Source of the DNA: Octopus vulgaris | Taxonomy: Eukaryota | DNA length: 64,000 nt | Direction: 5' to 3' | NCBI GenBank assembly: GCA_951406725.2 | Contig: OX597824.1 | Coordinates: 30,938,001-31,002,000, forward strand | In this document: positions 3,301 through 58,329 of the stretch, in pieces | Position numbering within the stretch: the first letter of the stretch is position 1 | Layout: the number at the start of each line of letters is the position of its first letter | The notes under the pieces: generated by a model | The model's input: the letters and a program-made list of their open reading frames with translations, nothing else | Database searches by the model: none | What the model was told of the DNA's origin: nothing | Program-made: the position numbers and the translations under genes

Positions 3301-4405
3301 GAAGCTGCGATGGGGGAAACAACTTCATAAACATGCATCTATGCTTGCATCCAGACCGTTGAATTACATTTGAGTTTCGATTATTTGCAAGTGTAGTTCA
3401 TCATAGATCCTGATCAAAATCAGTAGACAATAAAGATTGTATTTTATGTTCAAGAGTAGGATCCATTTGAGTTTACCTTAGGTAGATCTCTTTGAAATGT
3501 GAAGTTCTTTAAGGAATGGGAACATATAAAGAATATAAAGGATTGCCATTCTGTGAGTGACAGCATCCAATGCAGCACCTTGATCATTACTTTTATTGAT
3601 TGATCAGACTTAACGATCAATGTTGCCTAGATCTGTAAAATAACAGAAATGTAAATAATTACAAAATATTTCGAATTTTTGTTTTTACATGAATCGTTGA
3701 AGAATGGTATCAGATATGTCCAACTGAAGACTAGATTTTATTTTTCAGCTTCTTCTACATCGCTTTGCTCAACCTTCCCGGTATGGCAGTTCTCATCTGC
3801 TATGGATCTTAGATAAATTATTTCATAATTTTTCTTACATTAAAAAGTAATATGTTTCAATTTTTTCGATGCCGTTTTATTTTATTGATTAAATTTGTGA
3901 TCCGGAGGGATTTATTGTAGCTTTTCTTGTACAATCTAGGTTTAACCTTATGGGCATCATTACCACGACTTCAAAAGTGAATACATATTAAAGCGGAAAA
4001 ACTGGAGATGGTGAAAGATGTTGATATTTTTTTCGTTTTATATCAAGTAATGTTTTTTTTGTTGAAAACTGCCCGTCATCCAACAAGGTCAGGAAAAATA
4101 ACTAATATGTATTTTGGAACACACGTTTCATAGAATAGAAATGATTCCCTAAAAGTAGAGATACTGAAGCCTCTGAATAAATTTTTTACTCTGCATCATA
4201 TGATGCATTGAGTACTTAATTGAAACGTGATCTCGTTTGTTTTAATATTTGATATTTTAAGCACATGTACCCGAATTATAGTACGATACACGTATACAAA
4301 ATATGTTTGTCAGTGGTGTACAATATTCCAAATGTTCTGCATATACATTACATAACTACATACATATATATCGGTGTACACACACACACAAACACACACA
4401 CACAC

Positions 4406-10878: not shown

Positions 10879-11039
10879 TCTTTATATATAAAAGTTAAGT
10901 TGTGTGTCTGTCTCCTACGATTTAGATTCCTAACTACTCCCACATTTTGCGGTGCTGTTTAACCAAAACCGGGTATCGTATAGTCGTGAGTCATATCGAG
11001 CCCGTCTGGGTATTATCGCGCGTCTACGATGAGTCTACG
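10879..11039 (+). mobile_element. 5' fragment of non-autonomous Helitron
   Basis: Starts A|TCTTTATATATAAAAG; matches reverse complement of 27810-27976. Confidence 0.8.
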
Positions 11040-11049
11040 TTTAGTACTT

Positions 11050-11090
11050 ACCGGATATTTCTGACGTGTATATTTACGCCACGTCACTAT
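11050..11090 (+). promoter_or_regulatory. Putative proximal promoter with paired TGACGTG / GCCACGTCA (CREB3/XBP1/ATF-type) motifs, copy 1
   Basis: TGACGTG at 11062-11068 and GCCACGTCA at 11078-11086 flanking TATATTTA, 50-75 nt before the ATG; identical in copy 2. Confidence 0.4.
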
Positions 11091-11134
11091 CAGTGTGGTA
11101 CCATAGACAGTAAAACATCTCTAAAGGAAAGGCA

Positions 11135-11251
11135 ATGGAAATCAGCCGATATACTTGTCTATTTTCTCTTCTTCTCCCACTAGTATACAGCATAACCAAT
11201 AGTTCACCAGCAAAAGTGTCTTACTTTCACCGAAAAAATGTTTTCTCGCAT
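11135..11251 (+). CDS. Exon 1 (signal peptide plus short N-terminal segment) of putative secreted galectin-like gene, copy 1
   Basis: gcaATGG start; MEISRYTCLFSLLLPLVYSITNSSPAKVSYFHRKNVFSH (39 codons, hydrophobic core); strong donor CAT|gtaagt at 11252, phase 0; paralogous exon at 49148 keeps ATG, frame and donor. Confidence 0.7.
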
Positions 11252-12215
11252 GTAAGTTTTGATATACCAACACTGGATGTAAATAGACTGAATTCTTTTC
11301 ATTTTAATTCTTATAAATTATTTTATAGATTTCTAGCTTTGATTCGGTTCCAGTTATATATATCATATAATATCATAATTACTGATATGCATAGAATCAT
11401 TGTGTTTCGGGGTATTCCTTCCCGGTCCCCATTACCAATTCATGTCTATATATATATATATATATATATAAACATGCAAACATATATGCATGCACTCACG
11501 CACAAATATATATAGAGGCAATTGACGATTATTCAGATAGACAAATTAGATGTATCAAATATTATAACAGTTCGGATATGAAATACAAAATATGTATATA
11601 TGTATGCATGCAAAACGAGAGTAAAAAAAAATTGGAGAAATTCAGTCAATGAATATTTAATAATAAATACGCAGATATTTACTTTAATAGATCTAACTTA
11701 CATACAGTAAAGATGACAGACAAAAATTAAAGTGTCAGGAATAAAGGTTTTATAATTCCAGCAACTGTTGGGCGTATAATACCTTTCTTCCAACCCTTTA
11801 ATTTCCTCTGTCGTTTGTTCTCTGTGTAAGTTGTATCTATTAATATTAATATCTGTCTATTTATACTTAAATATTCATAATCTGAAAGTCTTCACTTCGC
11901 TTTCTCTCGTTTTGCATGCATACATATATACATATTTTGTAGGTCATATCAAAATTGTTATATTTAATACTTCTAATAACTGCCTCTAAATCTGGTCAAC
12001 TTTATTACACGTTTAGTCATTGCTTACCCCGTGGAGAGGGTTTCCTTTAAATACATCAGTGTATGTTTGAATCATTTGAGCACAACTAAATGTTCTCCAT
12101 AGTGAGAATCTCTGGGTCTCATCTATGGATCACACACACACATACAGGCATATATATATATACATACTTTCATACATACAGGTACACACACACACACACA
12201 ATCACACACACAAAA

Positions 12216-12255
<40 letters not shown>

Positions 12256-12271
12256 TCACACACACACACAC

Positions 12272-12580
12272 TCGAGGGGTGTTCATTAAAGATTTCCCTT
12301 GACTCACTTCCGGTTATTGCCGGATACGGAACTCAAACAGGTCTTGACAAGTAAACATACTTGTCTCTAGATGTCACATTGTAAATTGCAGCTTTCCACT
12401 GGTATTCATCCGTCTGTTATGGTTGCTGAAATGGACTAAGGTATTATAATGGAGGAAGTTGAATGCACATCCGCGATCAAGTTCTTATACAAGAAAGGTC
12501 GTACACCAAAATAGATTTTCGATGAAATGAAAGAAGCTTTTGGGGATGATACACCATTCACACGACGTAGTCAATCACCG
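12272..12580 (+). mobile_element. mariner 5' fragment (paralogue ~50260-50565)
   Basis: CGAGGGGTGTTC terminus; MEEVECTSAIKFLYKKGRTPK*IFDEMKEAFGDD HTH start. Confidence 0.7.
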
Positions 12581-12910
12581 GCATCACTGGATCTCACTCA
12601 TAAGGTATTGGAATCTTACATTGGGTATAAACTCTATAATTGGAAGGAGCCATTTTAAATTCTGTTGGATTTTACCCATAGGGTATTGGAAATTTACATA
12701 TATACCATTCTGCCTAAAAAATGGATCTATAACTTCAATATTCCTACATATCTTACATCTATTTTCTTTTCTCCACCCCACTCCCTATTTTGTATCCTCT
12801 CACACCGTCTCCGATGACGTGATATGATTAATAAATATCCTGCAAACCTTCTATCTATAAATGTTCTATCTACATAACCTTGGTTTTTATCTCATTACGC
12901 AAAAGATTCT

Positions 12911-12943
<33 letters not shown>

Positions 12944-13032
12944 ATGTCTGTGTGTGTGTGTGTGTGCGTGTATGTATGTGTGTGTGTGTGTGTATGTCTG
13001 TGTGTGTGTGTGTGTGTGTGTGAACATGTATG

Positions 13033-13320
13033 CTACGGCACAGGCATTGATGTTATTTCTATTTTATATAGTTTGACGGTACCTGTGGCAGCTTGGAACT
13101 GAAATCTTCTGAATAAACGTATATTTTCAGGTTTTGTGGAATTCCAACACCTCACTTTGGAACTTAGGCAGTTAGCTATGGAGATAAATTTTGAAATGGT
13201 TATTGGTAGGAATTTATAACCCAGATGGAGCTCCTGAAAATTCCTATTTTCTTTGGCACAGATGTTCTCTTTCTGACTAAGCTTTAATATAATACGTCGA
13301 CTGCTTTTGGGCAAGCCATT
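13033..13320 (-). mobile_element. 3' fragment of an RLE-type non-LTR retrotransposon (paralogue ~51210-51500)
   Basis: KENI..LGYKF(EF)LPI...KPE..RLFRRFQFQAATGTVKL resembles an RLE C-terminus. Confidence 0.5.
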
Positions 13321-14039
13321 TCAACTGCACAACAGTCTCTTCCTCCTCTCTCTCTCTCTCTCTCTCTCTCTAGATAGATAGATAGAAATATGTCTGTCCT
13401 ACTTTGTATGTATTCGAGTACATGTTCTTACTATCACTAATTGCCGGTTTCAGTGATCATTTCCTTTATATATAATGTTGCATATGAACTGTTCTAAATA
13501 ATGTGATTAATTTCTCATTGTATTTCTCCAGTAAAATGATATTACTGAAGAGAACATATGCGTATTTATGGATTCTCGATTGTTACATCATCCACAGTGC
13601 GCTAACAGCGTTAGTCGACTGTTTGTAAAGGAGAAACTATATGATTTAATTCATATTCGTATGTAAATTTGTACATCATACACTCTTATACAGCCTTTGC
13701 TATGATGCACTTGAAAATAAAGACATTTTCTTTGTCAACAGTCGATTAAGAAATTTCTCGTGTCATCAGCCCCGAGACCAGAACCAATTGTGCATAACAT
13801 CTCGGACGTAAGTCGTTTTGGGATTTCTATCATTTATTTTAATTAACCATTAATCTAACATTTATTATAATTATTTACAATTTGGCTGACAGGTTTCTTT
13901 AGCCAGAGTGGTTTGGATGTATTTTTAAAATAAAATTACTAACGCTTATTTATTTTCACTTTTCTCAGTATTTCAGGTTCGACCTAAATTCATTTTGTTC
14001 GGTATTTTACATGATTACACATACAATCACACTCACACA

Positions 14040-14114
<75 letters not shown>

Positions 14115-14699
14115 GCACGTACGCACGCACCCACGCACACACACTCATGCACACACACACACAAACAAACAAATAATTATTTGGACCTTGTGTATATAGT
14201 ATTCTGATTAAAGGACTTTCACAGTTAAGAGTATCTGATGTCATCCACACGTATGATATAAGTGTCACTGGATCTTTGTCGAGAATTCTGCCGTTTTTGT
14301 TGAGTCTATAGTGAATGAGGGGAACGGAAAATGGAGTTGTAAAAAATCATTATTGAAAACAACAATTGTTTCGACCCATCCTGCATCCCTTGCGGATAGG
14401 ACATTGTACAGCTAGTTGCGTTGCATCATTAAGTGCAGAATGCATCTCGTTGGCTGTCTCGTTTTAAATAAGATACTTCGCTAAATATACTTGGTTTCGC
14501 TTGGCATGTTGTAGTCGCCAGTAAGTAGTTGACTATACTGATAGAGGATAGAAACAATTTCCGGGTTATAACCGGTAAATGGCTCTGGCTATACTTCACA
14601 GTGAATACATGACAAAGTAAAGTAATAAAAACCCGGAAACAAAATTAGTAAGGATATGAGTTAAAAGATAAAATGAAGAAAGGTAAGTTTACATATATC

Positions 14700-14975
14700 T
14701 TGACATGAACACATGAGTACTCCTCGGTCTAAGCTCAGCATGAGAATAGTTGAAATTTGTCCTCATCATTCAATAAAAGCAGATACATTCTGTGTGGAAC
14801 CTACAGATGCTGTGGAATCTGCAGGCAATAGAGACCTTCCGTATAGCATTGGCATTGTAGAGATATCAAATAATCGCCCTTTTAACAACGTTCCAAACGT
14901 AGTAGTTCAATGTAGAGAGATCAGAAGCATCTGGACATACCATCTGTCATTTCCTCTGTTACACTTTTGGCCTTA
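14700..14975 (-). mobile_element. Tc1/mariner (maT-like) transposase 3' fragment
   Basis: Minus strand PDASDLSTLNYYVWNVVKR, similar to SPDLNPLDYYVWGVVER. Confidence 0.5.
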
Positions 14976-16704
14976 GTCAACGTTTATCTAATCAGAGAAG
15001 AATAAAAGCATAGCATATTCTTGGTTTTTTTAAAACCTTGTTAAGTATGCCTTGGCACAAATCAAACGGTTAATTTGTGCTTTTGCAAATATGAATTGGC
15101 CGCAACTCAGTACAACGAATGTTTTGATAATCCATTCTAACATCTGAAGTTCTTAAGCAGTGGTCCACTTCGATGTTCCCAGTTCGTGGAAAATGCTTTC
15201 AATCCGTTGGATGAATTGTGGTTTTATATGGTGACCGAGAATTTAGAAGTCTTAGAAGTTTTTCTGTTTCCTACAGTTGAAACATTCCCGCCCGATGTTT
15301 TTAATTTTATTGGGACATTGTGTAGAAAAGATCTTGCTATGTTTAGGAAGTTTCCTATTTCTAAATAACTGTGTTCTGTAAATGTGGTAGCACGACTGCA
15401 TGTCTTTTCACTTTCTGCGTTCTCATTTCATTTACCATGGCAGATTTGAAAGGAAAGGTAAATATTCTATCTTTTAGAGAGATATGACTACATTCAAATT
15501 CCCAGTTCGATTATATTGAGATCACTGGAGCTCACTAAAAACGAACATTTATGCAGAATTTTGGAGCAACAGGAGAGGAGATGCTTCCCTGTCCCATCGT
15601 CGCTTGAAAGAGCTAGATATGTGTTTACTTAAAGAATGACTCAAAATTCCCCTTAAAACAGTTCAGAACCTGTTCGGGTCAATTCCTCGACGTATTGTTC
15701 AAGCCCATGTATGTAACTGAACATGTACGCACTGATACAGGAATAGATGGCTGATAAAGGAATGGATGGCATTGCAAATATGAATTATATTTTACATAAT
15801 TTGTCACCATTAACGACCAGGAGCCGAAATTTAAATGCAGGTGACATTTTTGGTTTTGTGACTTCCAACTTCTCAGGTGTATTACCGTTACACTTTGGCA
15901 CACAGTTAATATCTTCAGTAGTTATTAGTACAAATTAAAAAATTTTGCACTTGCAGATTTTTCAAAACCTTTAATATTATGTTGATATCTGCAGGGCAAA
16001 TGATTTCAACTGTATATATAAAGTTCTAAATAACGTGCATAGTTTCTGAAAGTATACCTCCTGTCAAATATTATTACTGAAATGAACGAACTTGTGCTTC
16101 AATCTTAGAGAGTACTTTCGACTTATATCCAGTAGCAGCATGCTACCAGTGTCAGTAAGGTATTTCTGAAAGAGTAACTATATAATTTAACTCATGAACT
16201 TTTGCGTTTAATTGTCTACAAAAGTTAATTTCTTTCTCAACATATTCTCACGAATTTGAAGCCTGTTCTACCGTCAACAGAATTTCCTTTGGCTAACCGT
16301 CCGGAAGTAAGTTTTTTTTAATATCTTTCCTTTCATTTTGTATGTCACTTTTTATAAATCATCGCAATTTTTCGAAGTTATAAATTTTATAGAAATAAAT
16401 TTCGTATCAAGTGATATTCTTGTTCATATTAACATGCTATTACTAACCATTTCATGTGATGGATATGTTATTGAAAAATAAGTATAGTCTATTACAGCTA
16501 AGAAAACACATCACTCTCTTCACTAACATGTTTCTTTCCTTATATTTGGATGTCTTTATTTTTCAAATAAAACTACATATGCTTATTATTTATTTTCCCC
16601 TTTGCCATCACTTGAGGTAATAATTAAATTGATATATTGTTCACTAATTTACAGGATTTGTCACGTTTATCATAAATTATATCGATGACAAAATATTCTT
16701 TTCT

Positions 16705-17372
16705 ATTAGGCTCATGGCCCGAAATTTTGGGGAGGGGGCCAGTCGATTAGATCGACCCCAGTACGCAACAGGTACTTAACTTATCGACCCTGATAGGATG
16801 AAAGGAAAAGTCAAACCACGGTGGAATTTGAACTCAGAACATAGACAGACGAAATACCTATTTCTTTACAGTCCACAAGGGGCTACACACAGAAGGGACA
16901 AACAAGGACAGACAATCGGATTAAGTCTATTATATCGACCCCAGTGCGTAATTGGTACTTATTTAATCGACCCCGAAAGGATGAAACGCAAAGTTGACCT
17001 CGGCGGAATTTAACTCAGAACGTACGGCAGACGAAATACCTATTTCTTTGCTACCCAAAAGAGGCTAAACACAGAGAGAACAAACAAGGATAGACAAACG
17101 GATTAAGTCGATTAGATCGACCCCAGTGCGTAACTGGTACTTAATTTATCGACCCCGAAATGCTGAAAGGCAAAGTCGACCTCGGCGGAATTTGAACTCA
17201 GAACGTAACGGCAGACGAAATACCGCTTAGCATTTCGCCTGGAGTGCTATCGTTTCTTATTTCTTTATTGCCCACAAGTGGCTAAACATAGACGGGACAA
17301 ATTAGGTCAGACAAAGGAATTAAGTCGATTAGATCGACCCCAGTGCTAACGTTTCTGCCATCTCGCCGCCTA
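16705..17372 (-). mobile_element. Nested/tandem SINE cluster (about 3-4 partial units)
   Basis: Repeated gatcgaccccagtgcgtaactggtact...cgaaaggatgaaaggcaaagtcgacctcggcggaatttgaactcagaac units. Confidence 0.8.
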
Positions 17373-17479
17373 ATACCAACGACAAAATACTTATATATAA
17401 ATATATATACTGGAGAATTTACATTGTACAATATAACTATTTACAGATACTGTAAAAGACGGTGTTTGGGTCACTGGTT

Positions 17480-18330
17480 GAACTTAATTATTTACGAATA
17501 ATTTATGATTATTATAAAATAATCGAAGTGCAAAGGTAAGTTTGGAAAGTATGTCAAACAGACCCACGGACGCGACTCAGCAGTATTCGAATTACAGATA
17601 AGTATACTGGTGGAAATGTTCAGAATGTCTGCATGAAACTTTCCAGTCGACGGTATTCATCGATGGGCTCGCAAAGTAAGAAAGTGTACAAGAAGAAGCG
17701 TATCGTCACAGTTCTTACGGCAAACAGTCGTGAGATAGGAATTTCTCAAGTATCCATCGAAATTTATAGTGCTTTAATTGATATGAGCCGGCCCGAAGTA
17801 TAGGGTTTTGCTTGTTGTACTTGGCAAGATGGGTGGAAGGTACCCACTTTCTAAGGATAATATTTGGACTGATGGTATTACATATAAATGAAAGAGTTCA
17901 ACTAATCACCATAATTGTTTCTACAAAGCCTGAGCATTTGGGCATTGTGGAGGAACATCATAATAAAATGCAAGACTTACGTTAAGGTGAGACTTATCAT
18001 GAATAAGATTAATTGGAACATTCATTTTTCACTCTAACTGGTTCCATTTGCTTGAACTTGCTGCAAAATATGTAATGCAAAGTATTGAAGAGGACATTGA
18101 AACTAGAGTTTATTTCCAGGTGTATAGCGCAACTCCACACTACCTTAGTGATGTAATGGTCTATATTGATGAGAGATTGCCAAGTATGTGGATTGGATGG
18201 AGAGGTTTAGTAGAATACACTCCGCGCTTACTGAAGTTCTCACACCAATATAACTTTTCTGAGTATACGGTAAAAAACTGGTAGCAGTTGACCAACTGAG
18301 GGCTGGCCTTTTAACAAGATGCGCACACAA
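17480..18330 (+). mobile_element. Degenerate Tc1/mariner-superfamily transposase
   Basis: FQVYSATPHYLSDVMVYIDERLPSMWIGWRGLVEYTPR, similar to QQDGAPPHY..VR.YLDE..P.RWIGRRG.VE.PPR. Confidence 0.7.
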
Positions 18331-18984
18331 AACGTACTAAATGTTTTTTGATGTTAGCAATTCCATTCCTTCACTTTTTCGGCAAAAACAGGCGATGGAA
18401 AGCGAAACTCATAGGGTCAGACTGCACAGTAGTGAAATATATTGTGTGGGGTCGATCTAATCGACTTAATACCTATGTCTGTCCTTGTTTGTCCCCTCTG
18501 TGTTTAGCCTCTTGTGGGCAATAAAGAAATAGGTATCACTCGGCGCACTGCCTCATGAAAGTCAGTGTTAGCTCTCACTGCACACGCAACTGTGTGTTAT
18601 TCGTTGGCGCGCTACAGAACGAATATGCGAGATGGTATGACAAAGTCCGTGATCTTTGTCATACCATCTCGTATATTCATTAGATGTGCCTTTTCTATGT
18701 ACGGAAAACAACATCAGTTTGATACTTTGTGTATATTCGAGTACACCATTCTTTTGTCACTATATAAAATATTAGCTGATTTGATTTACCATTCTAACCA
18801 TTTTACTATATATGTTAAATGCTCTAAATAACTTGCTTAATTTCTGAGAATGATTTTCGAGTAAAATCATTTTAGAATGTGAACAAACTCATGTTTAAAT
18901 CCTAAAATATATGCTCCACATCTCCCCAGTATCACATAAGTGACAACGTGCTATCATTGTTAGTCAACTTTTCATGATGTTCTT

Positions 18985-19390
18985 TTATTTGTTTCAATCA
19001 TTTGACTGTGGCCATGCTGGAGTACCGCCTTAAAGTGTTTTAGTCAAATAAATCAACCCCATGTCTTATTCTTTGTAAGCCTAGTACTTATTATGTTGGT
19101 CTCTTTTGCCGAACCGCTAAGTTACATAAACTCACCAGCAGCTGTTATCAAGTGATGGTGGTGGTAATGGTGGTGTGGGACACACACACACACATACAAA
19201 CACACACATACATAAAGAAGATATATATATACGACGAGCTTCTTTTGGTTTCCGTCTACTAAATCCACTCACAAGGTTATGGTCGGCCCGAAACTGTAGT
19301 AGAAAACATGTCCAAGGTGCCATGAAGTAGGACTGAACTCGGAATTATGTGACTGGGAATAAGCTACTTATTAGCCACAACTGCGCCTAA
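18985..19390 (+). mobile_element. Octopus-type SINE (paralogue 53240-53645)
   Basis: tttgactgtggccatgctggag...gccgaaccgctaag...tttccgtctactaaatccactcacaagg...gggactgaac. Confidence 0.8.
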
Positions 19391-20484
19391 TAGACTAACT
19401 ATTGAATTTAATTAATGCCGTTTTGTTCCTTTGGCACTATTTAACCTGTATAAAACGTAAGTTTTGATCTACTTGAAAGCAGAAGATCATTTCCTTTTCA
19501 ACAGATTTTCCAGAGCTTATCCGAGAATTTCAATACATCAGAAGGATTTTCAAGTGACTTTAATCCAGTAAGACGTTTTTGCATTTCTCGTATCTTGTGA
19601 TATTCCTTTGATATTCTCTTACATGACAAATATCTGCATTAGATTCTAGTGAGATTATGAATCAGAATATATGTGTGTATTTTTGTATGGCAGAATCGGT
19701 GAATCATTAGACACACTTTGTTGTAGCAATTAAAATTTCGTTAGCTGTTTAGTACATTCTGGTTTCAATCCCATTGAACGTTCGGTTAGACGAAATTCCT
19801 ACAATAAGACATAGATAGAACTTACTTTAATGAATCGCAATTCATTTTTGTGCAAATTGTACATACAAATATTTATTGGAATAATACCCTAGATGTGGGA
19901 CAGTGAGATTACAAAATCTATAAATGCCAATTACAGAAGTCGTGTTCCGATTTGTATTTGAAGTTGTTCCAAAACTTTGGTGAAAGTTATGAACGCAACC
20001 CTTCATTGTTATATTTAACTTGAGAATATGATGCCTTACATCTTTTTAGGAGATCATTCATAAACGTCACTAGATTATGGTTAATAAATGTATGTAAGTC
20101 AATAAACATAGTCCTGAATCAAACAAAAGATAAAAAGTGAAAATGACAAACTTTAGGACTATACTTATTATATTGGTTCGGACTTCTGTCATTCTTAATT
20201 GATTTATGAAAATAAGGAAATTGACCATTAATTATTTTTTGCGTCAACTATCCCATTTTTTTCTGTTGGTTTTACATGGACCATTGTCTTGAGCTCACAG
20301 GTTGAGATTGCTTGGAGATTGAAGGCATGTTCTTAAAGCCAGTGTAACCACGTTTCTTACTGGCATCAAAATATTAATAGCTCTTTCTAAGATTCAATGC
20401 ATATTAAATCTCTCAATGAATGCAATACATTTACTGTCTATCTTAACTTTACAGAACAGCAAACTATGTATGTATGTATGCATG

Positions 20485-22883
20485 TGTTGTGCTAGAGTAC
20501 GACGCCTCCTGGCGAGAATAAACTGAGCCACTACATGTAAAAAGTTGTGTATGAGTAAGTGAGGCTGTTCGTGTCGGAGAGTAGATCCTGCTAGTCCCAC
20601 AGCCCGTGTGTTGATAGTTCAAAGTTGGAGTTCAACGTTTACAGTTCGATATAGCGTGTTGGACTGTTGGTTCTTAAAAGATTGTTGTTACGTTCCGTGT
20701 GGTTACTGCCGTTTGATTCGATTATTTTGTTATTACCCTGTTGCAGTGTATTCGTTAATCCATAAGGATATAACATCTGGCGACGAGGATCGTTCGAAAC
20801 TCACATTGGTTATTTGACAATTTCTGCGTCATGGGAAACCTATTAACCGCAGTATTACAGTTTCAAGAGAAACAAGAAGAACAACTAGAGGGGTTGCAAA
20901 AACAAATACTGCAACAACAGCAACAGCAACATCAACAATAACAACAATTAATTGAGTTACAGTCGGTGAAGTCCGATAATCCAGTATGCTCGTTTATGCC
21001 AGATGGCGTGGCTAACGCAATTTCTGAATCCGAGGGCGGGTATTACGTTTCCAGCGTATTATATAAGATATGAGGAAATTTTTAACAACGAGTTCAAGTC
21101 ATGGTCGAAGGAGCAGAAACTAAGGTTTTTACTACGCAAAGAAGCTCCTACTGAACATGAGCGTTACTGTAACATTATTCTGCCAAAAGTCGAGTGAGAA
21201 TGGCTTTCAAGAAACCGTGGAAGTGCCTTCAAAATTATTTTGTAATAGAAGTTCATTATTCAACAAAAATACTGTTCGCGGCAATTAAATCCGTAAATAA
21301 AGAGTTAGACAGACTGGAAAAGAGTGGAAGCAGCAGAAAGGAGTCACGGTATGTATTTTTAAAAAATGATAAGATTAGGCTGTATGACGATTTCACTACA
21401 GAATTGGATGACTGCTTAAAAACCTACCACCATCAACTCCCGACTACAGAGGACATTGTTTCAAAGTGAAATGGTGGAAAAGTTTTTTTCTAAATTAGTT
21501 CTGTCTGTAGCCTATTTACAGATAAAGGTATACCAAAAATGTTCAAAGTATTTGACAATAATACACACAGAGGATTGTACAGATACATACGATTACCTTT
21601 TAGATTACAAGTGGCACCAGCAATATTCCAGCAAATCATGGATACCATGTTATCTGAGTGTGAATGTGCAATCCCATATTCGGACGATATTTTGATCAAG
21701 AATAATTTTCGTGAACAGCATGTGGAACACATGAAGATTCTGTTTAAGAAAATGAAAGTTTTCGGGTTCACTTTGAGTGAAGAAAAATGCGAATTCTTTC
21801 TGCTATAAATTAAGTACTTAGGGCAAATAATTGATAAAAGTGGGAGACGTCCTGACGCGTGGAGAGCGGACGCAATAAGGAATATTCTTGTACCGACAAA
21901 TATTACAACTTTACAAGTATTTCTTGGGTTGGCAAACTATTATCAAAGTTATATTCCTGTTATGCACAAGTTAAGAGCTCTATTGCACAACTTATTATTT
22001 TTTAAAAAAAGGAAATAAAGACGAATTGGTCCACTAAATGCCTGAACACTTTTGAAGAAATTTAAAAATTCTTAACTCAGACTTGTCGTTAGCACATTAC
22101 GATCCTGAAATGGACATCATTGTAGCACCTGATGCTTACGAGCACGGATTAGGTGCAGTTCTACTTCATAAATACGAAGACGGAAGTACAAAACCAGTGG
22201 ATCACGTCTCGCGGTCGGTAACAGCGGCAGAGAAGAGATATTGTTAAATTGAAAAGGAGGTCCATGCAAATATTTTTGCAGTTAAACATTTCACGGGTTT
22301 CTGTGTGGCAGAAGTTTTTTTAATTACAAATAGACCATAAACCTTTGCTGTCGATTTATGTGTAAAAAAAAGGGTTACCGATTCATACTGTGAATCGTCT
22401 GCAACGTTATGGTGTAATATTACTAAAATATTATTTCAAAATGCAATACATCCCATCGAAAAGAATCGGTCGAGATTATTTCGAAAAAATATGGAACTAC
22501 TAGAACAAACTGTTATAGCCGCACTGCAGGCAGAAAATGAAATTAAAAGTGTTATGATGAACGTTATCCAAGAACGTCCAGTCACGGTACAGAATATAAG
22601 AATGGAAGCTGTAATACGATGAGTATATTACGAAAATAAAGGAAACTTAAAAAAATTAGCAGAATATAAATTCAGAAGCCATTAGTTTTTCAATTGGCGA
22701 TGATATTCTGATGTATGCCCAAAGAGTGATGGTTACAAACTAGTGTATTGCAACAATTTCACAACGAACATCCAGGAATTGAAATGATGAAGGCTGTGAT
22801 GAGGAGTTACGTCTACTGGCCGTCTTTGGACCGAGTTATCGAAAACTTGGTGAGAACATGTTGAAGTTGGGTGCTCGCAGCCA

Positions 22884-22919
<36 letters not shown>

Positions 22920-23000
22920 AAATATCAATCCCGGCCAGAGATGAAGAACCCATGGTCTAAGTTACACAGTGACTATGCAGGACCGGTAAATGGCGAACGA
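20485..23000 (+). mobile_element. Degenerate, internally deleted Ty3/Gypsy LTR retrotransposon, copy 1 (5' LTR 20485-20775)
   Basis: LTR TGTT...AACA then PBS TGGCGACGAGG; gag; RT THRGLYRYIRLPFRLQVAPAIFQ...YSDD; RNaseH DA.EHGLGAVL; integrase start; no 3' LTR; many stops. Confidence 0.9.
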
Positions 23001-23587
23001 TTCGGGTTCCTGTTGGTATACGTTTTCATTCATGTGCGCTAACTACAGCATTAGAGAATTTTAACTCTTATTTCTAGCAATGTAGGCGTTTATTAACACC
23101 CTAGTCGTATTTAGTGACATTAAAATTTTCTTTTTTGGTGAAACATTGCAACTTACTGTTCATGTTAATTTTAAGCATATACATGAACAAATCGTTAAAT
23201 CATCTACTAATTTGGATGAAAAAAATATATATGTATACTAATAGATAAGCAAATCCATAAAAAGGCGAATATCGAGTGGGCTTAATTGATGAGGCAACGG
23301 AAATTGCCCAAACTGACGTCAGTATCAAGAATTCTCGAACGGCATTTTTCGGAAGATTCAGGCCCCTGTTATTGCATATGCTTTCATTCATTTTATCTCA
23401 TATTTCTAGTAATGTAGGTGTTTCTTAACACTCTAGTCACATTTAGTGACAATTATAATCCCCCTTTTGAGAAACATTGCAACCTGTGTTTATATATGTG
23501 TGTGTGTGTGTGTGTGTGTTCCTATATATGTATAAACACATATATATATAATTATTTTTATATGTATGTATGTATGTATGTGTGTCA

Positions 23588-23635
<48 letters not shown>

Positions 23636-23636
<1 letters not shown>

Positions 23637-23931
23637 ATACGAAAAAGAGTTCACATAGTAGAAACGATGGTTATGTTATGATCTTCATTGCCTTACAGCT
23701 TTTTCTACTATAAGATGCAGTGGACTTGGAGTTGAGAGGCTGAATAACATCCTGTGGCTTAATCGGCGCCTCCAATATCAAGTCCTACATTACAAATGTA
23801 GGCACTGATTAAGATATAGGATATTCAGCCACTCAAATTCGAGTCCATTGTATCTTATAGTAGAAATAGATGTAAGATAATGAAGTTCATAATATAACCA
23901 TCGTTTCTTCTGTGTTGTCTCTTTTTTGTAT

Positions 23932-23933
<2 letters not shown>
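23636..23933. repeat. ~300 bp fold-back (inverted repeat) element (paralogue 62708-63023)
   Basis: Arms agaaacgatggttatgttatga...ctactataagatgcagtggact vs agtccattgtatcttatagtag...tcataatataaccatcgtttct. Confidence 0.8.
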
Positions 23934-23968
<35 letters not shown>

Positions 23969-24945
23969 CGTACTTTTATTTAATTTTATTATTTTATTAT
24001 TTTATAATTGCTATATGTGAACTAAAATCTAAAAGTATTAAGTGTGATTGTTTTGTAAAATAGTTTGCAACGTAAAATATTAGAGTATAGCTAGTGAAAA
24101 TATATGCTATAGTTTATTAATGTTATTCTTAAAGCTAAATTATATCTTCACAGATAAATAGATATTTGTATCTATTTACTCTATTTTTTACCTTAGGTTT
24201 TTAACATGAAAAATGTATTATAGCCACTTTTCTACTGTTTAAGTTTCAAATTTAGTTGATGGATAAAATTTAAATTTAATTGTAGCTCGAATTGAAATTA
24301 TTGCCATGAAACGAACGTAATCTTTTTACTTACATATTGTTTATTGTTTTTATGATCGAGTTATTTGTTTTATAATATATTTTATTTTTTCTTAATGATT
24401 TGGTTTATGTCTATCATTGTTTGAATTACATAATAGTGTTTTTTCTCTAATTTATAAATATTATAATTTTTTCCATCGCCTTGACTTAACAGCCCTCATC
24501 GTATGTTTTTACTGCATTATTCTCTTTGTTCTGTCTTTTACCGTCTTGTTTTGTTCTTACTATACTGTTCTTGTTACCAGTTTAAACCCCTCCGCAAAAA
24601 ATCCCAAATTTTATTTAATTTGCTTTGCGGGAAGAACTGTTTCAATGAAGTCGCGTCTTGTCCTTAGCTTCGAACGCGGAGTAGACGAAGCAGAGACAAC
24701 TGAAGAAGGGGAATATTCTTTGTGTTGTATGTCTTTTACTCTGTTTTTTCGTTGTTTGAGTTTTTGTATTTAAGTTTCACATTGTGTTTGACGTTTTGTT
24801 TATGTATTGTACCCATATATGCATGTATATATACATATAAATGTAGGTATGCATATATATGTATGTATATATGCATATATTTATATCTTATTAATATTAT
24901 TATATATATATACATATATACACACATATAAACATATATAGGAAT

Positions 24946-24980
<35 letters not shown>

Positions 24981-25189
24981 CACACATACACACTTATATA
25001 TATAATTATTATACACTACATGCTGCAATGTTTCCCAAAAACGAGGATTATAGTTCATAATATAATCAACGTTTTTCGTGTATCATCTCTTTATTTCGCA
25101 ACCACTCTATTCTCGTTCTAATTTTTGTGCTGAAACATACGTATATAGAGTTCTACACCGAATTATTACTCTCGCAGTTCCTATGGCAA

Positions 25190-25221
25190 ACATACATACG
25201 TACATACATACATACATGCAT

Positions 25222-25254
<33 letters not shown>

Positions 25255-25276
25255 CATATATGTATGTGTATGTATG

Positions 25277-25307
<31 letters not shown>

Positions 25308-25319
25308 CGTTATATATAA

Positions 25320-25369
<50 letters not shown>

Positions 25370-25392
25370 GTATATATATATATATGTATATA

Positions 25393-25470
<78 letters not shown>

Positions 25471-25487
25471 TATATGTATATATATAC
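25190..25487. repeat. Compound (TA)n/(CA)n/(TATG)n microsatellite
   Basis: Seen directly; source of the spurious YI-rich ORFs. Confidence 0.95.
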
Positions 25488-25765
25488 CGAAGATGCCGTC
25501 TAGAAAACTGGTTCTGTTTCCGTTGTTTAGAAATCATTAACTTTTTTCCACTTTCTAAATACGTTTTTACTGGCAAATATATCAAAATAAATAAGGCTGG
25601 GAATACCACCTGATGATCCGAAACGTTTGCTCCGATTACTGGAATAAGGGGTATCGGTGTGCTTTATGTCTTTATGTACATACATTCACAAATGTCTGAG
25701 TGTGTGTGTGTGTGTGTGTGCAAATCTGTTTGAGTGTGTATATTTATACTATATTTTCTTTACAG

Positions 25766-25964
25766 ATTAACTATAAATTTGAGTAATGGTGGCGATATAC
25801 CTTTACAAATTGATATCCGCTTTGACTACCTGACATATTGGAGACGCGTTGTTTATGACAACTATCATGGTGACTGGCGTAGACAAGAAAGAATAAATAT
25901 ATTTCCATTTCAATGTATTGTCCCATTTGAGACTGAGATATATGTAACTCGATGGTACTTCAAG
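25766..25964 (+). CDS. Galectin CRD central exon, copy 1 (gene copy probably pseudogenised)
   Basis: Acceptor ttttctttacag, donor AAG|gtatgc; 199 nt, phase 2 to 0 as in galectin central exons; (R)LTINLSNGGDIPLQIDIRFDYLTYWRRVVYDNYHGDWRRQERINIFPFQCIVPFETEIYVTRWYFK matches the galectin pattern F.INL..G.DI.LHF..RF...VV.N...G.WG.EER...FPF..G.PFE..I.V....FK. Confidence 0.85.
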
Positions 25965-26616
25965 GTATGCCAAATTATTTTCTTATTGACTATAGTAAAC
26001 GAGGGTGAATGCTGTTGAAAACCGACATCTTGTGAAAGGAAATTTTTAGCATATGTGATTTCATGAAATTAGTAGTGGACCTAAGATTTATCAAAGTTTG
26101 CATGTTTGTGAGATTGGTTATCAGTAATGATTAAGAAATTGAAGTAGATATGAACTGAATATAATCAGTTATATTTATTCCATATTGTATTACATATTTC
26201 AAGGATAAAATTGCAAACCTAAGAAAACGAATTGAATTAACCGCGTTAAATTCAATGTTTAGATAATGTCAGTCATCATGACTTCTTATCATCTCAGCAG
26301 ATATATTATCAGACAAATATTTTCCATTGATCAGGATTTAAAATAATGGGACGTACACATAAATACAAAACACCTTTTCCCGTCGAGGGCTTATGTGCCC
26401 CAAACACTGGACTATTTTCTTTTGTCAAAACACGGTAATCGCTTATAAGCTTTAAGCTTTAAGCTTACAAATTATCGCTATTATTTACAGAATTGTCATT
26501 TGTTACTGCTTTTCACCTCATTGCATATATATATATAGCAGGTGGTGCTATTAAGTTAGACATGGCCTGGACCAATCTTTGGTCGAAACATATCTAAGTT
26601 TATCTAAGTTTAAGTT

Positions 26617-26655
<39 letters not shown>

Positions 26656-26679
26656 ATGTATATATATATATATACAAAT

Positions 26680-27206
26680 TAGATTAGAGATAAAACAACT
26701 ATTAGGCAAATCAAACAGTGAAAAACATAAAACAAAACAAAAAACTGTATATAATTAATATAACATTCCAAATAGATAAAATTTAAAATTAAATCATTTA
26801 AAATTTATAATTTATATTTATAAATTTTTATATTTATATTTTTTAAATTTCAAATTCATAAATGGTATATTCTTTTAATTTTTAAATTTTTAATAAATAA
26901 ATAAATAAATATAAATATTAAAAAATTAAAAGTTTAAAAATTTATAAATTTAAAAAATATAAAAAATATATGAAAATTTATAAATATAAATTAAAAATTT
27001 TAAATTTAAATAATTTAATTTTAAATTTTATACTTTATATATTTAGTATAATATATTAATTATATTTATTTTTATCGTTTGGTTTATGTTTTTCACTGTT
27101 TGATTTGCCTAATAGTGGTTTTATCTCTAAGTTGATTTATATTTATACTGTAAAATTTGATTTAATCCTAAATCTAATTTTTCTCTGTAAGTCTGGATTT
27201 ACATCC

Positions 27207-27340: not shown

Positions 27341-27976
27341 TAGCAGTATCGCCCGGCGTTGCTCGGGTTTGTAAGGGAAATAACTATATAAACATTTTTA
27401 GAGAGTTATAGCCAAAAAATAGCCAAAAATGCATTAAAAATGGAAAAAATATGATGGTAAATTTTTTTAAAAATCGTTGACTCATCGTAGACATTTTTAG
27501 AGAGTTACTTCCCTTATATAATAGCGAAAAAATGCATTAAAATGGAAAAAAAACGATGGTAAATTTTTTTTTAAATCGTAGACTCATGTAGACGCTTTCT
27601 TAGCCATTTCTGTTTTGGTGTCTTCAAGCCATGAAATCGTTGTTCTAAAAGAACGCTGGTCTCCTTGACAATGCATTACGACGTTGATTTCCTTACACTC
27701 CCTTCCCCACAGGTGCAGGTGTGAGCGTGGACGCCAACTCCGCCGCCATCGACACACGAAAAATTATGCATTAAAATGGAATAAAAAATGATGTTAAATT
27801 ATTTTTAAAATCGTAGACTCATCGTAGACGCGCGCTAATACTCAGACGGGCTCGATATGAATCACGACTATAAGCTACCCGAATTTGGTTAAACTGCACC
27901 GCAAAATGTGGGAGTAGTTAGGAATCTAAATCGAAGGGGACAGACACTCACACAACTACAGTCTTATATATATAGA
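27340..27976 (-). mobile_element. Complete non-autonomous Helitron
   Basis: On minus strand: 5' TC(TATATATAAG), subterminal GC hairpin CCCGAGCAACGCCGGG, 3' CTAG, inserted between A and T without TSD. Confidence 0.85.
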
Positions 27977-29585: not shown

Positions 29586-30574
29586 TCCTAGCATACATCA
29601 CGCATATTACTGAACGCGAGGTGCACGGTGGTATGCACTTGTCCATGAAGGCAGGTGGTGTAACTGGGCAAGATGAAGCTTGTAATCAAACTTCATAATT
29701 ATACATATATACCTACACATGGACTTTGTTATCAAATTTGTGTTGCTTCCATTTGCAAGTGTAGTTCATAGAACCTTACCAAACTTAGTAGACAGTTCAG
29801 ATTGTATTTCGTCTGCGCGAGTAAAATCTCTTTGACTTCAGCTTACGTAGATTTCTTTGGAAAGTGAAGTTCTTAGAGGAATAGGGACATATGAAGAATT
29901 GCCATTCTGCGAGTGACAAACCTAATGTAGTGACATCAGGATTCCTTGTACTGCTTGATCCCACTTAACGTTCGATTTTACCTAAATCTATAAATAGAAA
30001 TTTTAATCCTTACAATGAATTTTTATATGAATTTTTGAAGAATGGGGCGAGGCATGTCCAACTGATCACATCAGACTGGATTTTATTTTTCAGCTTCTAC
30101 TACACCACTTTGCTCAAACTTGCTGGTATGGAGGTCTCGTTTGTTATGGGCTTAGATCTCAAATAAAAAGCAATATGTTTCAAATTTATGATGCTTTTCT
30201 TATTATATTCATAAAAGTTTTGATTTTAAGGAAATTAATTGTAGCTTTTCCCGTACAATTTAGGTTTCTTTTAATGGTAATTATAGCCACAGCTACAAGA
30301 ATATAGGGTATGCCGGAGTGAAACGACTAGAGGTACTGAACCATATTGAGGTTTTTGGCGTGGAAATTAAGTGAACCTTTGTTTAAAACTGCCTGTCCTC
30401 CTCCTACTATGCTCAGAGAAAATAACTAACACTAAAATATTTCGTAACTCTTTGCAGTTCATAGAATAGAAACAATTACTAAAAGTAGAGTTGATGAAGC
30501 CTCCGAATAAATTTGTGACTTTTACATCGTACGATGAACGTGATGTTTGTTTTTATTTAAAAGTGTACATACAT

Positions 30575-45614: not shown

Positions 45615-47019
45615 ATTGACATTTACTTTTAATCCGCATGTTTGATGCAATCACCTGCCGGGGCACACCCAGCGCCCTAGGGCAAGTGAAGGTTAAGAGT
45701 TGTTGAAATATAGCTGAAAGCTTGGGGAGGGGAAGTAGAGATATATCTCCATGTAATGCAAACACAAACATTTACATTGATAGGGTTTTTCTAAGGATGT
45801 GGGCAGTACTTGTTAGCACAATCTTTTGGATTTCCTTGAGACATGGTTTTCCAGGGATATTGTCTAGGTGTTTCTGACATCCCTTTTTTATCATACCTAG
45901 GGCACCTACAATAACAGGAACAGTTTTTGCTTTAAGATTCCACATCCTCTGTATTTCGATTTCCAGGTCCTTATATTTACTAAGTTTGTCAAATTCCTTT
46001 ACAGATACATTTTTATCAGTGGGGACGCTTACTTCTATTAGTCTGCAGGTATTTTCTTTCCTGTCTTTAACAATTATGTCTGGTCGATTAGCCTTTATCG
46101 TTCTGTCAGTGTTGACTGGAAAATCCCAGAGGATGGTGACACCTTTACCTTCAACAACTGGCTGAGGATGGTGTTCATACCAGTTAGTAGGAGTGTCGGA
46201 TTTGTAGTGTTTACATATCTTCCAATGTATATACTGTCCTACCCTATCGTGGCGATTTTTGTATTCGTTTGGTGTCAGCACAGGACATCCCGAAACGAGA
46301 TGGTCTATTGTTTCGTCAAATGTGTCACAGAATCTGCATTTAGGGTCAGTACCGTTTCGGAGAACGTTAGCCTGGTAATTTCTGGTAAACAAGCTTTGAT
46401 CTTGTGCTGCCATTATGAAGCCTTCAGTCTCTGCTTTCAATCCAGAACTCTTCAGCCACTGATGGGTTGTTGCTTGGTCTACATCAGCATTTTGTCTTCG
46501 GAGAATATATTGTCCATGCAGGGGCTTCTGGCTCCACCGCCTCTCAATTTGATTCTGCCCGTTCTTTTTTGCAGTCTGCTTGATTCGCTTTGCTTGCTTG
46601 GTAGCAGTGGTTTCCGGCTCTTCATCTGATTCAAGGTTAATGTCTAGTTCCCTTTCGAACTTATAAGCTTCCTTGACAATAGAATGCAGCTTTTTGCTGC
46701 TTTCGTGTTCGCACACAAGTCGCAGCATCCAGTCCTTTGTACTAGATAGGTACCTGTTCATTCCTACAGTAGAGGTCTTATAGCACAGCTCTAATTGCAT
46801 CATTCCTCTCCCCCCGCTGCTTCTAGGTAGGTACAAGCGGTCTACATCTGCCTTAGGGTGGTGCATGCTCTTGGATGTCAGTAACTTTCTTGTCTTCCTG
46901 TCCAAGCGTTGGAGTTCCGTAAGGTTCCAGTTAATGATGTTAAAATTGTACTGGACTACTGGAAGTGCCAGGGTGTTAATGGCCTCAATGCAGGTGTTAA
47001 TGCCAGGGTGTTAATGGCC

Positions 47020-49147: not shown

Positions 49148-49261
49148 ATGGAAATCAGCCGATATACTTCTCTATTTTCTCTCCTTCTTCTACTAGTATA
49201 CAGCATAACCAAATATTCATCTGCAACAGTGGGTGCTTATGACGGAGATTATTTGTCGGAT
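49148..49261 (+). CDS. Exon 1 (signal peptide) of putative secreted galectin-like gene, copy 2
   Basis: MEISRYTSLFSLLLLLVYSITKYSSATVGAYDGDYLSD (38 codons); donor GAT|gtaagt at 49262, phase 0; paralogue of 11135-11251. Confidence 0.72.
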
Positions 49262-52928: not shown

Positions 52929-54549
52929 TATTCATTAGATGTGCCTTTTTTATGTACGGAAAGCAATATCAGTTTGATACTTTGTGTATATTCGAGTACA
53001 CCATTCTTTTGTCACTATATAAGTATTAGCTGATTTGATTTACCATTCTAACCATTCTACTAAATATGTAATATGTTCTAAATAACTTGCTTAATTTCTG
53101 AGAATGATTTTCGAGTAAAATCATTTTAGAATGTGAACGAACTCGTGTTTAAATCTTAAAATATATGCTCCACATCTCCCCAGTGTCACATAAGTGACAA
53201 CGTGCTATCATTGTTAGTCAACTTTTCATGATTTTCTTTTATTCGTTTCAATCATTTGACTGTGGCCATGCTGGAGCACCGCCTTAAAGGGTTTTAGTCA
53301 AAGAAATCAACCCCATGTCTTATTCTTTGTAAGCCTAGTACTTATTATGCTGGTCTCTTTTGCCGAACCGCTAAGTTACATAAACGCACCAGCATCTGTT
53401 ATCTAGTGATGGTGGTGGTAATGGTGGTGTGGGAAACGCACACACACACACATACAAACACACACATACATAAAGAAGATATATATATACGACGAGCTTC
53501 TTTCGGTTTCCGTCTACTAAATCCACTCACAAGGCTATAGTCGGCCGGAGACTATAGTAGAAAACATGTCCAAGGTGCCACGAAGTGGGACTGAACTCGG
53601 AATTATGTGACTGGGAAGAAGCTCCTTATCAGCCACACTTGCGCCTAATAGACTAACTATTGAATTTAATTAATGCCGTTTTGTTCCTTTGGCACTATTT
53701 AACCTGTATAAAACGTAAGTTTTGATCTACTTGAAAGCAGAAGATCATTTCCTTTTCAACAGATTTTGCAGACCTTATCCGAGAATTTCAATACATCAGA
53801 AGGATTTTCAAGTTACTTTAATTAAGAAAGACGTTTTTACATTTCTCGTATCTTGTGATATTCCTTTGATATTCTCTTACATGACAAATATCTGCATTAG
53901 ATTCTAGTGAGATTATGAATCAGAATATATGTGTGTATTTTTGTATGGCAGAATCGGTGAATCACTAGACACACTTTGTTGTAGCAATTAAAATTTCGTT
54001 AGCTCTTTAGTACATTCTGGTTTCAATCCCATTGAACGTTCGGTTAGACGAAATTCCTACAATAAGACATAGATAGAACTTACTTTAATGAATCGCAATT
54101 CATTTTTGTGCAAATTGTACATACAAATATTTATTGGAATAATACCCTAGATGTGAGACAGTGAGCTTACAAAATCTATAAATGCCAATTACAGAAGTCG
54201 TGTTCCGATTTGTATTTGAAGTTGTTCCAAAACTTTGGTGAAAGTTATGAACGCAACCCTTCATTGTTATATTTAACTTGAGAATATGATGCCTTACATC
54301 TTTTTAGGAGATCATTCATAAACGTCACTAGATTATGGTTAATAAATGTATGTAAGTCAATAAACATTGTCCTGAATCAAACAAAAGATAAAAAGTGAAA
54401 ATGACAAACTTTAGGAATATACTTATTATATTGGTGAAAATTTATAATGTGACCTGAAGCTTTCTCTGCTGTTTTTTCGTGAACACCAGTTACAAATATT
54501 TGTGTCATGTGTAAGCTCGTCGAGAGGAAGAGCACAACTAATCCAGAGA

Positions 54550-55175
54550 AATTGCATTATTATTTTTTCTGCGTAGCTAATTTCGAATTATTATGAAAGA
54601 TATACTGGTCAAAACACTTCAGTCTTCATATTCGGCATATTCTGCTTTATGAGTTCAATAAAGGCAATAGCGCAACTGAAAACGCGAAGAATATTAATGT
54701 AGTATATAGAATCAGACAATAAGCATAAGCCAGTCTCAACGGTAGTTCTAGAATTTCTGAGCCGGAACCTACAGCCTAGAAGACGAGCCTCATCCTGGAA
54801 TATCTGTTGAGCTCGATGAGGACGTCCTGCAAACCCTTGTAGAAAAAAAATCCCATCATAACTATTGAGAAACTAGCAGAGAAGCTTGGATTTGGCTATT
54901 GGAAAAGTCAGCAAATTGGGTCAACGGGTTCTTCACAAACTTCCCGAATCTAATCGCGCGCAGAGAGTGCTTATGTGCTCTTCTTTTCTGTCACGTCTCA
55001 CGAATGAACCGTTTTCCCACCGAATAGTGACTGGTGACAAGAAATGGGTTCTCTATAAAAATGTCAAGCACCGATGACAGTAAGCACCCACGTAAGGGTT
55101 TGTGTTATGTTTGGTGGAATATGACAAGTTTAGTCCACTTTGACCTTTTAAAGCCTAACCAAACGATAATGCGAA
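54550..55175 (+). mobile_element. Degenerate mariner transposase
   Basis: HIRHILLYEFNKG; HRIVTGDKKWVLYKN; VWWNM..VHFDLLKPNQTI. Confidence 0.85.
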
Positions 55176-58246: not shown

Positions 58247-58329
58247 ATGCATAGATTAATTATGGAATTACCAAGACGCAGCCGAATGTCTGTGATAGTT
58301 AAGGCCATTCCAAGATCACCTTGTCTCAG
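58247..58329 (+). CDS. Exon 2 (first strands of galectin CRD), copy 2
   Basis: Acceptor tttctattatttacag, donor CTCAG|gtaaca; 83 nt, phase 0 to 2; MHRLIMELPRRSRMSVIVKAIPRSPCL(R) resembles the galectin (G)MSxxIKGxP...R segment; final AG joins the leading A of the central exon to give Arg before LTINL. Confidence 0.7.

Follow-up and report, generated by a model that had tools for sequence, protein, structure and literature searches.

The window, a stretch of 64,000 nucleotides from the 2.8-Gb genome of Octopus vulgaris (C11:30938001-31002000), contains part of a tandem gene family of five young copies (38-49 kb) and three older ones. The young copies are named A (window position 11135), B (49148) and, downstream, C, D and E (L003, L002, L004). 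The older ones are U1 and U2, upstream (L006, L007), and V, downstream on the minus strand. A search of the whole genome with exon 1 gave seven matches, all within this cluster. A copy opens with a signal-peptide exon and closes with three galectin exons (g1, g2 and g3); phase-0 micro-exons may lie between the two parts. Splicing is predicted for all family models. By this predicted splicing, open frames of 168 (B), 169 (C), 233 (D), 168 (E) and 194 (V) amino acids were obtained, and B, C, D and E were without stop or frameshift. The predicted product consists of a leader, a tail or stalk, one galectin domain and a stop, with no transmembrane stretch: the highest 19-residue hydropathy past the leader was 0.64-0.99 in B-E and 1.53 in V, the frames end at the galectin stop, and only 19-20 residues or short micro-exons lie ahead of the galectin domain in B-E. 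The mature chains are basic, with a pI of 8.9-9.9. The features of copies A and B, in window positions unless stated otherwise, are as follows.

11039..11134, plus strand: proximal 5′ flank of copy A, homologous to the TMED10 5′ flank
11079-11086, plus strand: CCACGTCA in the copy A 5′ flank, at −56
11135..11191, plus strand: predicted signal peptide of copy A, codons 1-19, derived from the TMED10 signal peptide
11192..11251, plus strand: mature N-terminal tail of copy A including the patch (11198-11251), ending in a phase-0 GTAAGT donor
13585..13807, plus strand: decayed TMED10-exon-1 repeat of copy A, whose 3′ part is micro-exon m1
13742-13807, plus strand: micro-exon m1 of copy A, phase 0, 22 codons, open
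16244..16306, plus strand: micro-exon m2 of copy A, 21 codons, acceptor dead in A and intact in D
19505..19567, plus strand: micro-exon m3 of copy A, 21 codons, intact in A and D
20170..20180, no strand: junction of a ~4.9-kb deletion in copy A that removed g1, the sequence being present in B at 54436-59320
25766..25964, plus strand: copy A g2, phase 2 in and phase 0 out, PF00337 at 25.8 bits (cut-off 22.1)
30264..30374, plus strand: copy A g3 with the stop codon, the last galectin exon
49148..49261, plus strand: copy B exon 1, signal peptide and acidic tail, patch at 49211-49261
53763..53825, plus strand: dead micro-exon m3 of copy B, donor lost, in-frame stop
58247..58329, plus strand: copy B g1, phase 0 in and phase 2 out
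L008:1358-1556 and 3678-3788, just beyond the window: copy B g2 and g3, completing the 168-aa open frame

Copy A is broken. Because about 4.9 kb with g1 is missing, its model is frameshifted and stops six codons into g2; the deletion of g1 is also why a blind splice-site scan missed this exon in copy A. Between A and B, g2 and g3 differ by 20 replacement and no synonymous changes, and therefore the loss of g1 looks recent. The copy is a mosaic, with an m1-m2 segment and patch type as in D and a 3′ half mostly closest to B. By position, its tail is what remains of the initial ~20 residues of the GOLD domain of TMED10. Two further exon candidates, the block at 13023-13341 and one at 13533, were discarded because neither offered a suitable open frame. 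A 142-nt element occurs at 10901-11042 and, inverted and 92% identical, at 27809-27950; it adjoins the copy A 5′ flank where similarity to B-E stops. Decayed LTR-retrotransposon pol-like sequence, common to the young copies, was seen in an intron at 20970-22900. A 412-aa open frame of a non-LTR retroelement on the minus strand (45620-47010) is 98% identical to a copy ~80 kb upstream and is a recent insertion.

The family is nearly unannotated, a single unnamed partial model of 83 aa having been found. This model, CAI9729906.1 (Octopus vulgaris, without a function name), matches copy B and links portions of g1 and g2; it is an annotation, not a transcript, and g1 was located through it. The last galectin exon was located with a profile of 97 domains from 13 galectins. 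Contigs of four sequencing runs compared with window positions 11000-26800 were swamped by repeats and contained no exon-joining contig among the matches listed, a result that is neutral on expression. Among the older copies, U1 has an apparently frameshifted last galectin exon at window positions 3882-4059; its g1 and g2 were not found, and it looks like a pseudogene. U2 (L033:9981 to L041:5812, C11:30.798-30.874 Mb) has at least 10 Lys/Glu-rich micro-exons, several with GTTGGT donors. Its g2 is 39 nt shorter and has no W-x-x-E-x-R motif. The g2-g3 region is present twice, as near-identical 15-kb copies, possibly through a recent duplication or as an assembly duplicate.

A source for the first exon was located beside the cluster. 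A DNA profile made from the family first exons alone matched exon 1 of TMED10 (E value, 1.3e-4), ~80 kb past the last exon of copy E. The TMED10 gene is intact, with four exons (C11:31218042-31233762), and was identified by PF01105 and a best solved match to TMED10 (PDB 5azx; E value, 2.5e-12). With TMED10 exon 1 and its 5′ flank as a single query against 664 kb, 11 other units were matched at an E value of ≤0.01 and 15 at ≤0.2; a reversed-query control over the same 664 kb gave two matches, the best with an E value of 3.1. Exon 1 of copy V is intact, is in frame with the galectin exons and is identical to TMED10 at 21 of 49 residues (43%; E value, 2e-13), and as judged by its sequence copy V is an intermediate between TMED10 and the young copies. 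A frameshifted TMED10-exon-1 copy, termed V0 (L027:7570-7850, minus strand), lies between TMED10 and V and has kept the TMED10 donor context. An alignment of TMED10, V, V0, U2, U1, B and A showed colinearity from the 5′ flank to the VYS cleavage motif, ATG and leader included. A 6-nt deletion relative to TMED10 was common to all family members, and the older copies retained the TMED10 intron-1 donor context.

Direct comparisons of the young copies with TMED10 were weak (E values of 0.16 for A and 7.8 for C and D, with copies B and E unmatched at ≤10). The TMED10 score was reached by 3 (A), 126 (B), 12 (C), 17 (D) and 23 (E) of 1,000 shuffles, and by none for U1, U2 and V0. Because this direct similarity is weak, the link of the young copies to TMED10 is transitive, by way of U1, U2 and V. 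The micro-exons lie at the 3′ ends of further decayed TMED10-exon-1 units, where they follow a new internal acceptor. Behind exon 1 of U2 there were ten open phase-0 micro-exons (54-78 nt), behind exon 1 of U1 one open and one stopped micro-exon, and one further stopped micro-exon was an orphan. On these matches, the first exon, 5′ flank and micro-exons of the family are judged to derive from TMED10 exon 1. The claim of the preliminary description that exon 1 is a real exon is strengthened by this homology and by the five young copies, each of which has an open frame here and a canonical phase-0 donor. With PF01105, no match was obtained for exon 1 of A, B or V, and TMED10 exon 1 itself scored 28.6 bits (cut-off, 25.9). 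The complete GOLD domain, transmembrane helix and cytoplasmic tail of p24/TMED proteins are absent from the family, whose proteins are not p24 cargo receptors. Elsewhere on the chromosome, a single open frame (C11:49252237-49252767) matches almost the full length of the p24-family Pfam model and is an intronless p24 gene or retrocopy.

The three remaining exons, 130 codons in total, specify a galectin domain. PF00337 was above the cut-off for g2 in all four copies scanned (A, B, D and V), g1 alone and g3 alone giving no Pfam match. The best PDB matches of a g2 profile were galectin-3. A single-exon fold of copy V g2, predicted without an alignment, was all-beta with a pLDDT of 51, and sequence matches to solved galectins support a galectin fold. 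The genome has three other galectin loci, and g2 and g3 DNA profiles including the intron flanks were compared with the retrieved parts of these three loci. For both, the top match was to a galectin at C11:55.19-55.21 Mb, in its second domain (E values, 1.2e-11 and 3.6e-13), and g1 matched the exon before them (E value, 3.5e-8; only that locus was searched with g1). This donor tandem galectin (C11:55.17-55.21 Mb) is 24 Mb from the cluster. A protein tree grouped A-E (89/89) and joined them with U2 (94/97), whereas V and the donor fell on long branches at an open fork; the donor assignment rests on the DNA profiles because the placement of V, U2 and the donor was unsettled in the tree. The matches point to a DNA-level duplication of the galectin exons, which would have been joined at compatible phase-0 introns. 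Two further loci were seen, a second two-domain galectin that departs from the canonical binding motif (C11:33.14-33.16 Mb) and a four-domain galectin (C3:144.46-144.49 Mb).

Non-coding divergence across the A/B duplication is 3.35% (24,559 aligned non-repeat columns, 24.6 kb). Within the patch, which overlies the start of the TMED10 GOLD domain in the alignment, at least 19 mismatches in 51 aligned nucleotides and one 3-nt indel were counted, matching the ~19 substitutions and in-frame 3-nt indel reported previously. Nearly all of these changes had been said to alter an amino acid, and 17-18 were indeed non-synonymous and 2 synonymous (Nei-Gojobori; the range reflects gap placement), corresponding to 17-18 of ~38 replacement sites and 2 of ~13 synonymous sites. 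The reported flip from basic to acidic was also seen, with charges (K/R minus D/E) of +3 in copy A and −2 in copy B. The flanks are near identical, as had been stated: the differences number 4 in the 63 nt of codons 1-21, 3 over the first 100 intron nucleotides and 1 over the 95 nt before the ATG. In the sliding-window comparison that the preliminary description had proposed, the patch was the top A/B window over all 24,559 columns, with 19 mismatches against 11 in the worst non-coding 51-column window. The description had placed the variable segment directly after a conserved leader; the conserved leader stands, but the signal peptide probably ends at Ser19 (VYS), which would put the mature start at 11192.

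Two patch types were distinguished, an acidic type in copies B and E (48/51 identical) and a longer type in A, C and D (identity to A of 46/54 for D and 43/54 for C). The alignment of TMED10, V, V0, U2, U1, B and A shows the 3-nt indel to have arisen by insertion in the A type. An assembly error as the source of the patch was rejected, as each patch type was found in more than one copy. Recombination has made mosaics of the copies, and on the sequence evidence the patch types were moved between copies by local paralogue exchange.

Omega values were calculated with our own codon-model script on five copies, and expected change counts were scaled to a non-coding tree length of 0.104. The most divergent window was a coding exon in 9 of 10 paralogue pairs; the patch is thus accelerated, as the preliminary description had held, but it is not the sole accelerated region. 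The mature-region dN/dS was 2.1-7.7 in all six intact-copy pairs (Fisher p ≤ 0.01, kappa 1), which are not independent of one another, with a dS of 0.03-0.13 versus a non-coding divergence of 0.03-0.056. For the galectin domain, the M0 omega was 5.0 (p = 6e-8), and M2a was favored over M1a (p = 6e-12) with 72% of sites at an omega of 9, a type of site-model test that mosaicism can inflate. The leader omega of 0.48 was not significantly below 1 (p = 0.39). The patch region had an omega of 1.9 (p = 0.22 versus 1; M2a versus M1a, p = 0.4). On the tree, 26 replacement changes were counted in the patch versus 4.0 expected (p = 2e-13), an excess that stays (p = 6e-10) with a yardstick of 0.15, as intron conversion could lower the non-coding value; the synonymous changes numbered 4 versus 1.5 expected (p = 0.06). 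The galectin domain had 143-154 replacement changes versus 30 expected and 9-20 synonymous changes versus 10 expected. Diversifying selection on the gene family with a conserved leader is supported by these results. Selection is strongest in the galectin domain, and change in the mature parts is about fivefold faster than in the DNA around them. The selection previously proposed for the patch holds for the family, but its main target is the galectin domain, the patch alone does not reach significance by omega, and the copy in which it was described is broken.

The A/B patch could instead be an old divergence, either converted from a lost paralogue or kept while its flanks were homogenized, with no selection on the tail. 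The mosaic nature of the copies fits such a history, as does the combination in copy A of a B/E-like 5′ flank (1/95 differences) with a D-like patch (8/54), and so do the mildly raised synonymous count and the patch omega not significantly above 1. Matching synonymous divergence would be expected of a converted tract, yet the synonymous sites of the A/B patch changed far less often than the replacement sites, by the counts given above. A surviving conversion donor, the possibility that the preliminary description had itself raised, was rejected: none was found outside the young copies in 664 kb or among the seven genome-wide matches, the best donor-like matches beyond the young copies in the 664 kb being 30/51 and 30/54. 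Change also continues inside the patch types and is nearly all replacement for A-C (10 versus 1 synonymous) and B-E (3 versus 0), though not for A-D (5 versus 3). An old divergence is, on balance, unlikely.

It is very improbable that the tail is a relaxed, neutral leftover of TMED10 in a decaying cluster. Copy A, V0 and apparently U1 are broken, as such decay would have it, but four young copies are without stop or frameshift, and neutrality predicts ~4 replacements in the patch and ~30 in the domain where 26 and 143-154 were seen. Window divergence, dN/dS, omega and the replacement excess largely refute this explanation.

Seven galectin binding residues, H44, N46, R48, N61, W68, E71 and R73, are listed in a passage of an earlier paper (PMC3396283). 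Copies B and D have kept four of the seven and copies A, C, E and V three, and sugar binding by the family is uncertain because only these three to four canonical galactoside-binding residues are kept. Galectin-1 positions 46, 48, 61, 71 and 73 are nevertheless invariant in the five young copies, as D, R, D, Q and R. The change of N to D at position 46 is also found in the donor. Amide and acid are swapped in the five young copies (N61 to D, E71 to Q) at two positions that bind galactose O6 in galectin-1. The combination of an invariant core and a fast-changing rim suggests that the site works and that its specificity is under adjustment. In copies B-E, V and U2, but not in the donor, g1 has a cysteine at its end, which may be disulfide-bonded to the inherited FPFxC cysteine.

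We interpret the family as chimeric genes of a TMED10 exon and a galectin, whose products are predicted to be secreted lectin-like proteins likely binding a fast-changing non-self surface, a reading to which we assign a probability of about 0.7. A copy of the TMED10 5′ flank and signal-peptide exon would have been joined to three galectin-domain exons, so that the TMED10-derived leader would send the galectin domain into the secretory pathway. Secretion is predicted because the leader is hydrophobic and TMED10 derived and no transmembrane stretch follows. Cleavage would occur after Ser19, by homology with TMED10, making the patch part of a free N-terminal tail of the mature protein. The tail and the optional micro-exon stalk could tune charge, reach or oligomerization, and the g1 cysteine would pair with the FPFxC cysteine as a new disulfide. 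The binding site would still work, with its five invariant positions set among variable residues. The non-self surface bound by the product would most likely be microbial or parasitic, and binding to a fast-changing foreign surface is the likely reason for the fast change of the mature parts.

As to the partner, a pathogen or parasite is the leading candidate, at somewhat less than even odds; a gamete or mate is possible but doubtful, prey, saliva or venom unlikely, and anything else improbable. The same genes could act in reproduction (sperm-egg or spermatophore-oviduct), with sexual conflict or mate competition as the selective force. A dN/dS near 5, seen here over most sites, is in the range of marine gamete-recognition proteins. 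Galectin-3 is the top PDB match of the family profile, and a transcript with galectin-3 as its best match was raised in fertilized oviducal glands of Octopus maya, as described in part of one report (PMC8976471). That transcript may, however, be an ordinary galectin, and the O. vulgaris genome has three other galectin loci; we regard a reproductive role as a minority possibility.

The genes could also encode saliva or venom components selected against prey surfaces. Venom gene families usually combine a conserved leader, a fast mature region, tandem duplication and a gained disulfide, all of which are present or likely here, and the mature chains are basic; a literature search for Octopus vulgaris galectin and posterior salivary gland, however, yielded only cuttlefish haemocyte work. 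This role appears less probable still than the reproductive one.

The CCACGTCA sequence at −56, which we take to be a CREB3/XBP1-type site, was kept in all five young copies; copy A is without the CCGGAAGT element that B-E carry at −116. CrebA directly drives p24.1 in fly secretory tissue, according to a passage in PMC3003312. By analogy, retention of CCACGTCA hints at gland expression. TMED10 itself is reportedly a route for leaderless secretion. A bolder proposal, offered tentatively and as less likely true than false, is that octopuses gained a new repertoire of secreted lectins by capturing the TMED10 promoter and signal exon and reusing exon copies as a phase-0 stalk kit. On this proposal the family would now evolve as fast as venom or gamete proteins, and its sugar site, rewired from Asn/Glu to Asp/Gln, would recognize a non-galactose ligand within a gland secretion.

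Searches for relatives returned ordinary galectins. The representative-protein search gave 14 matches, CAI9729906.1 at 81% and 13 ordinary galectins at 28-37%. A g2 search among longer proteins gave no match, and g2 alignment retained none of 1,046 longer candidates and, among 14 proteins of near length, only CAI9729906.1 itself. An Atlas search led from g2 to generic galectin clusters and gave no match with exon 1. Orthologues in other cephalopods were not found in protein searches, a weak negative given prediction gaps. One galectin transcript in O. vulgaris haemocytes is mentioned in a section of PMC4199593. No description of the family or of a TMED10-galectin fusion was found among the papers listed in literature searches, subscription journals and the supplementary gene lists of octopus genome papers apart. 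For cephalopod immunity, reproduction or feeding, the cluster is a tangible candidate for a rapidly evolving recognition system.

Of known proteins, the closest is the C-terminal domain of the galectin at C11:55.17-55.21 Mb in the same genome, with which the family shares the three-exon layout, intron phases, HxDxR-type motif and FPFxC. The family differs in keeping three to four of seven binding residues, in its omega of ~5, in having a predicted signal peptide, typically absent from galectins in the passages cited (PMC3396283, PMC3269628), and in being single-domain where lophotrochozoan galectins generally have two or four domains, as far as one section of PMC8878817 describes them. Without the full seven-residue site and with a predicted signal peptide, it is lectin-like but departs from galectins in two defining features. 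TMED10/p24-delta is colinear with the family in 5′ flank, ATG context, signal peptide and cleavage-site motif, but the family keeps a GOLD remnant of only ~20-35 residues, without transmembrane helix or tail.

Congerins I and II, galectins of conger eel skin mucus, are likewise duplicated, single-domain and of accelerated evolution, with proposed microbial glycan targets; they are vertebrate, number two genes rather than about eight, and have no chimeric first exon or micro-exon stalk in the account given in part of PMC3269628. Nematogalectin of cnidarians also has an added N-terminal segment on a galectin domain, according to a passage of the same paper (PMC3269628). It differs in its collagen GlyXY stalk and its structural role in nematocysts. 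GREPs of heterobranch snails are secreted, with one or more N-terminal immunoglobulin domains. Like the present family, they are molluscan and have an extra N-terminal part before a galectin-like domain, but they are reported, in the section of PMC8878817 concerned, to be restricted to Heterobranchia. The octopus family is without an immunoglobulin domain, and its N terminus comes from TMED10. Exon capture and accelerated lectins are known kinds, while their combination with donors and intermediates in place appears undescribed; here the predicted gain of classical secretion by a cytosolic galectin domain can be followed in one genome, from the donors through a TMED10-like intermediate and micro-exon remnants to the diverging young copies.
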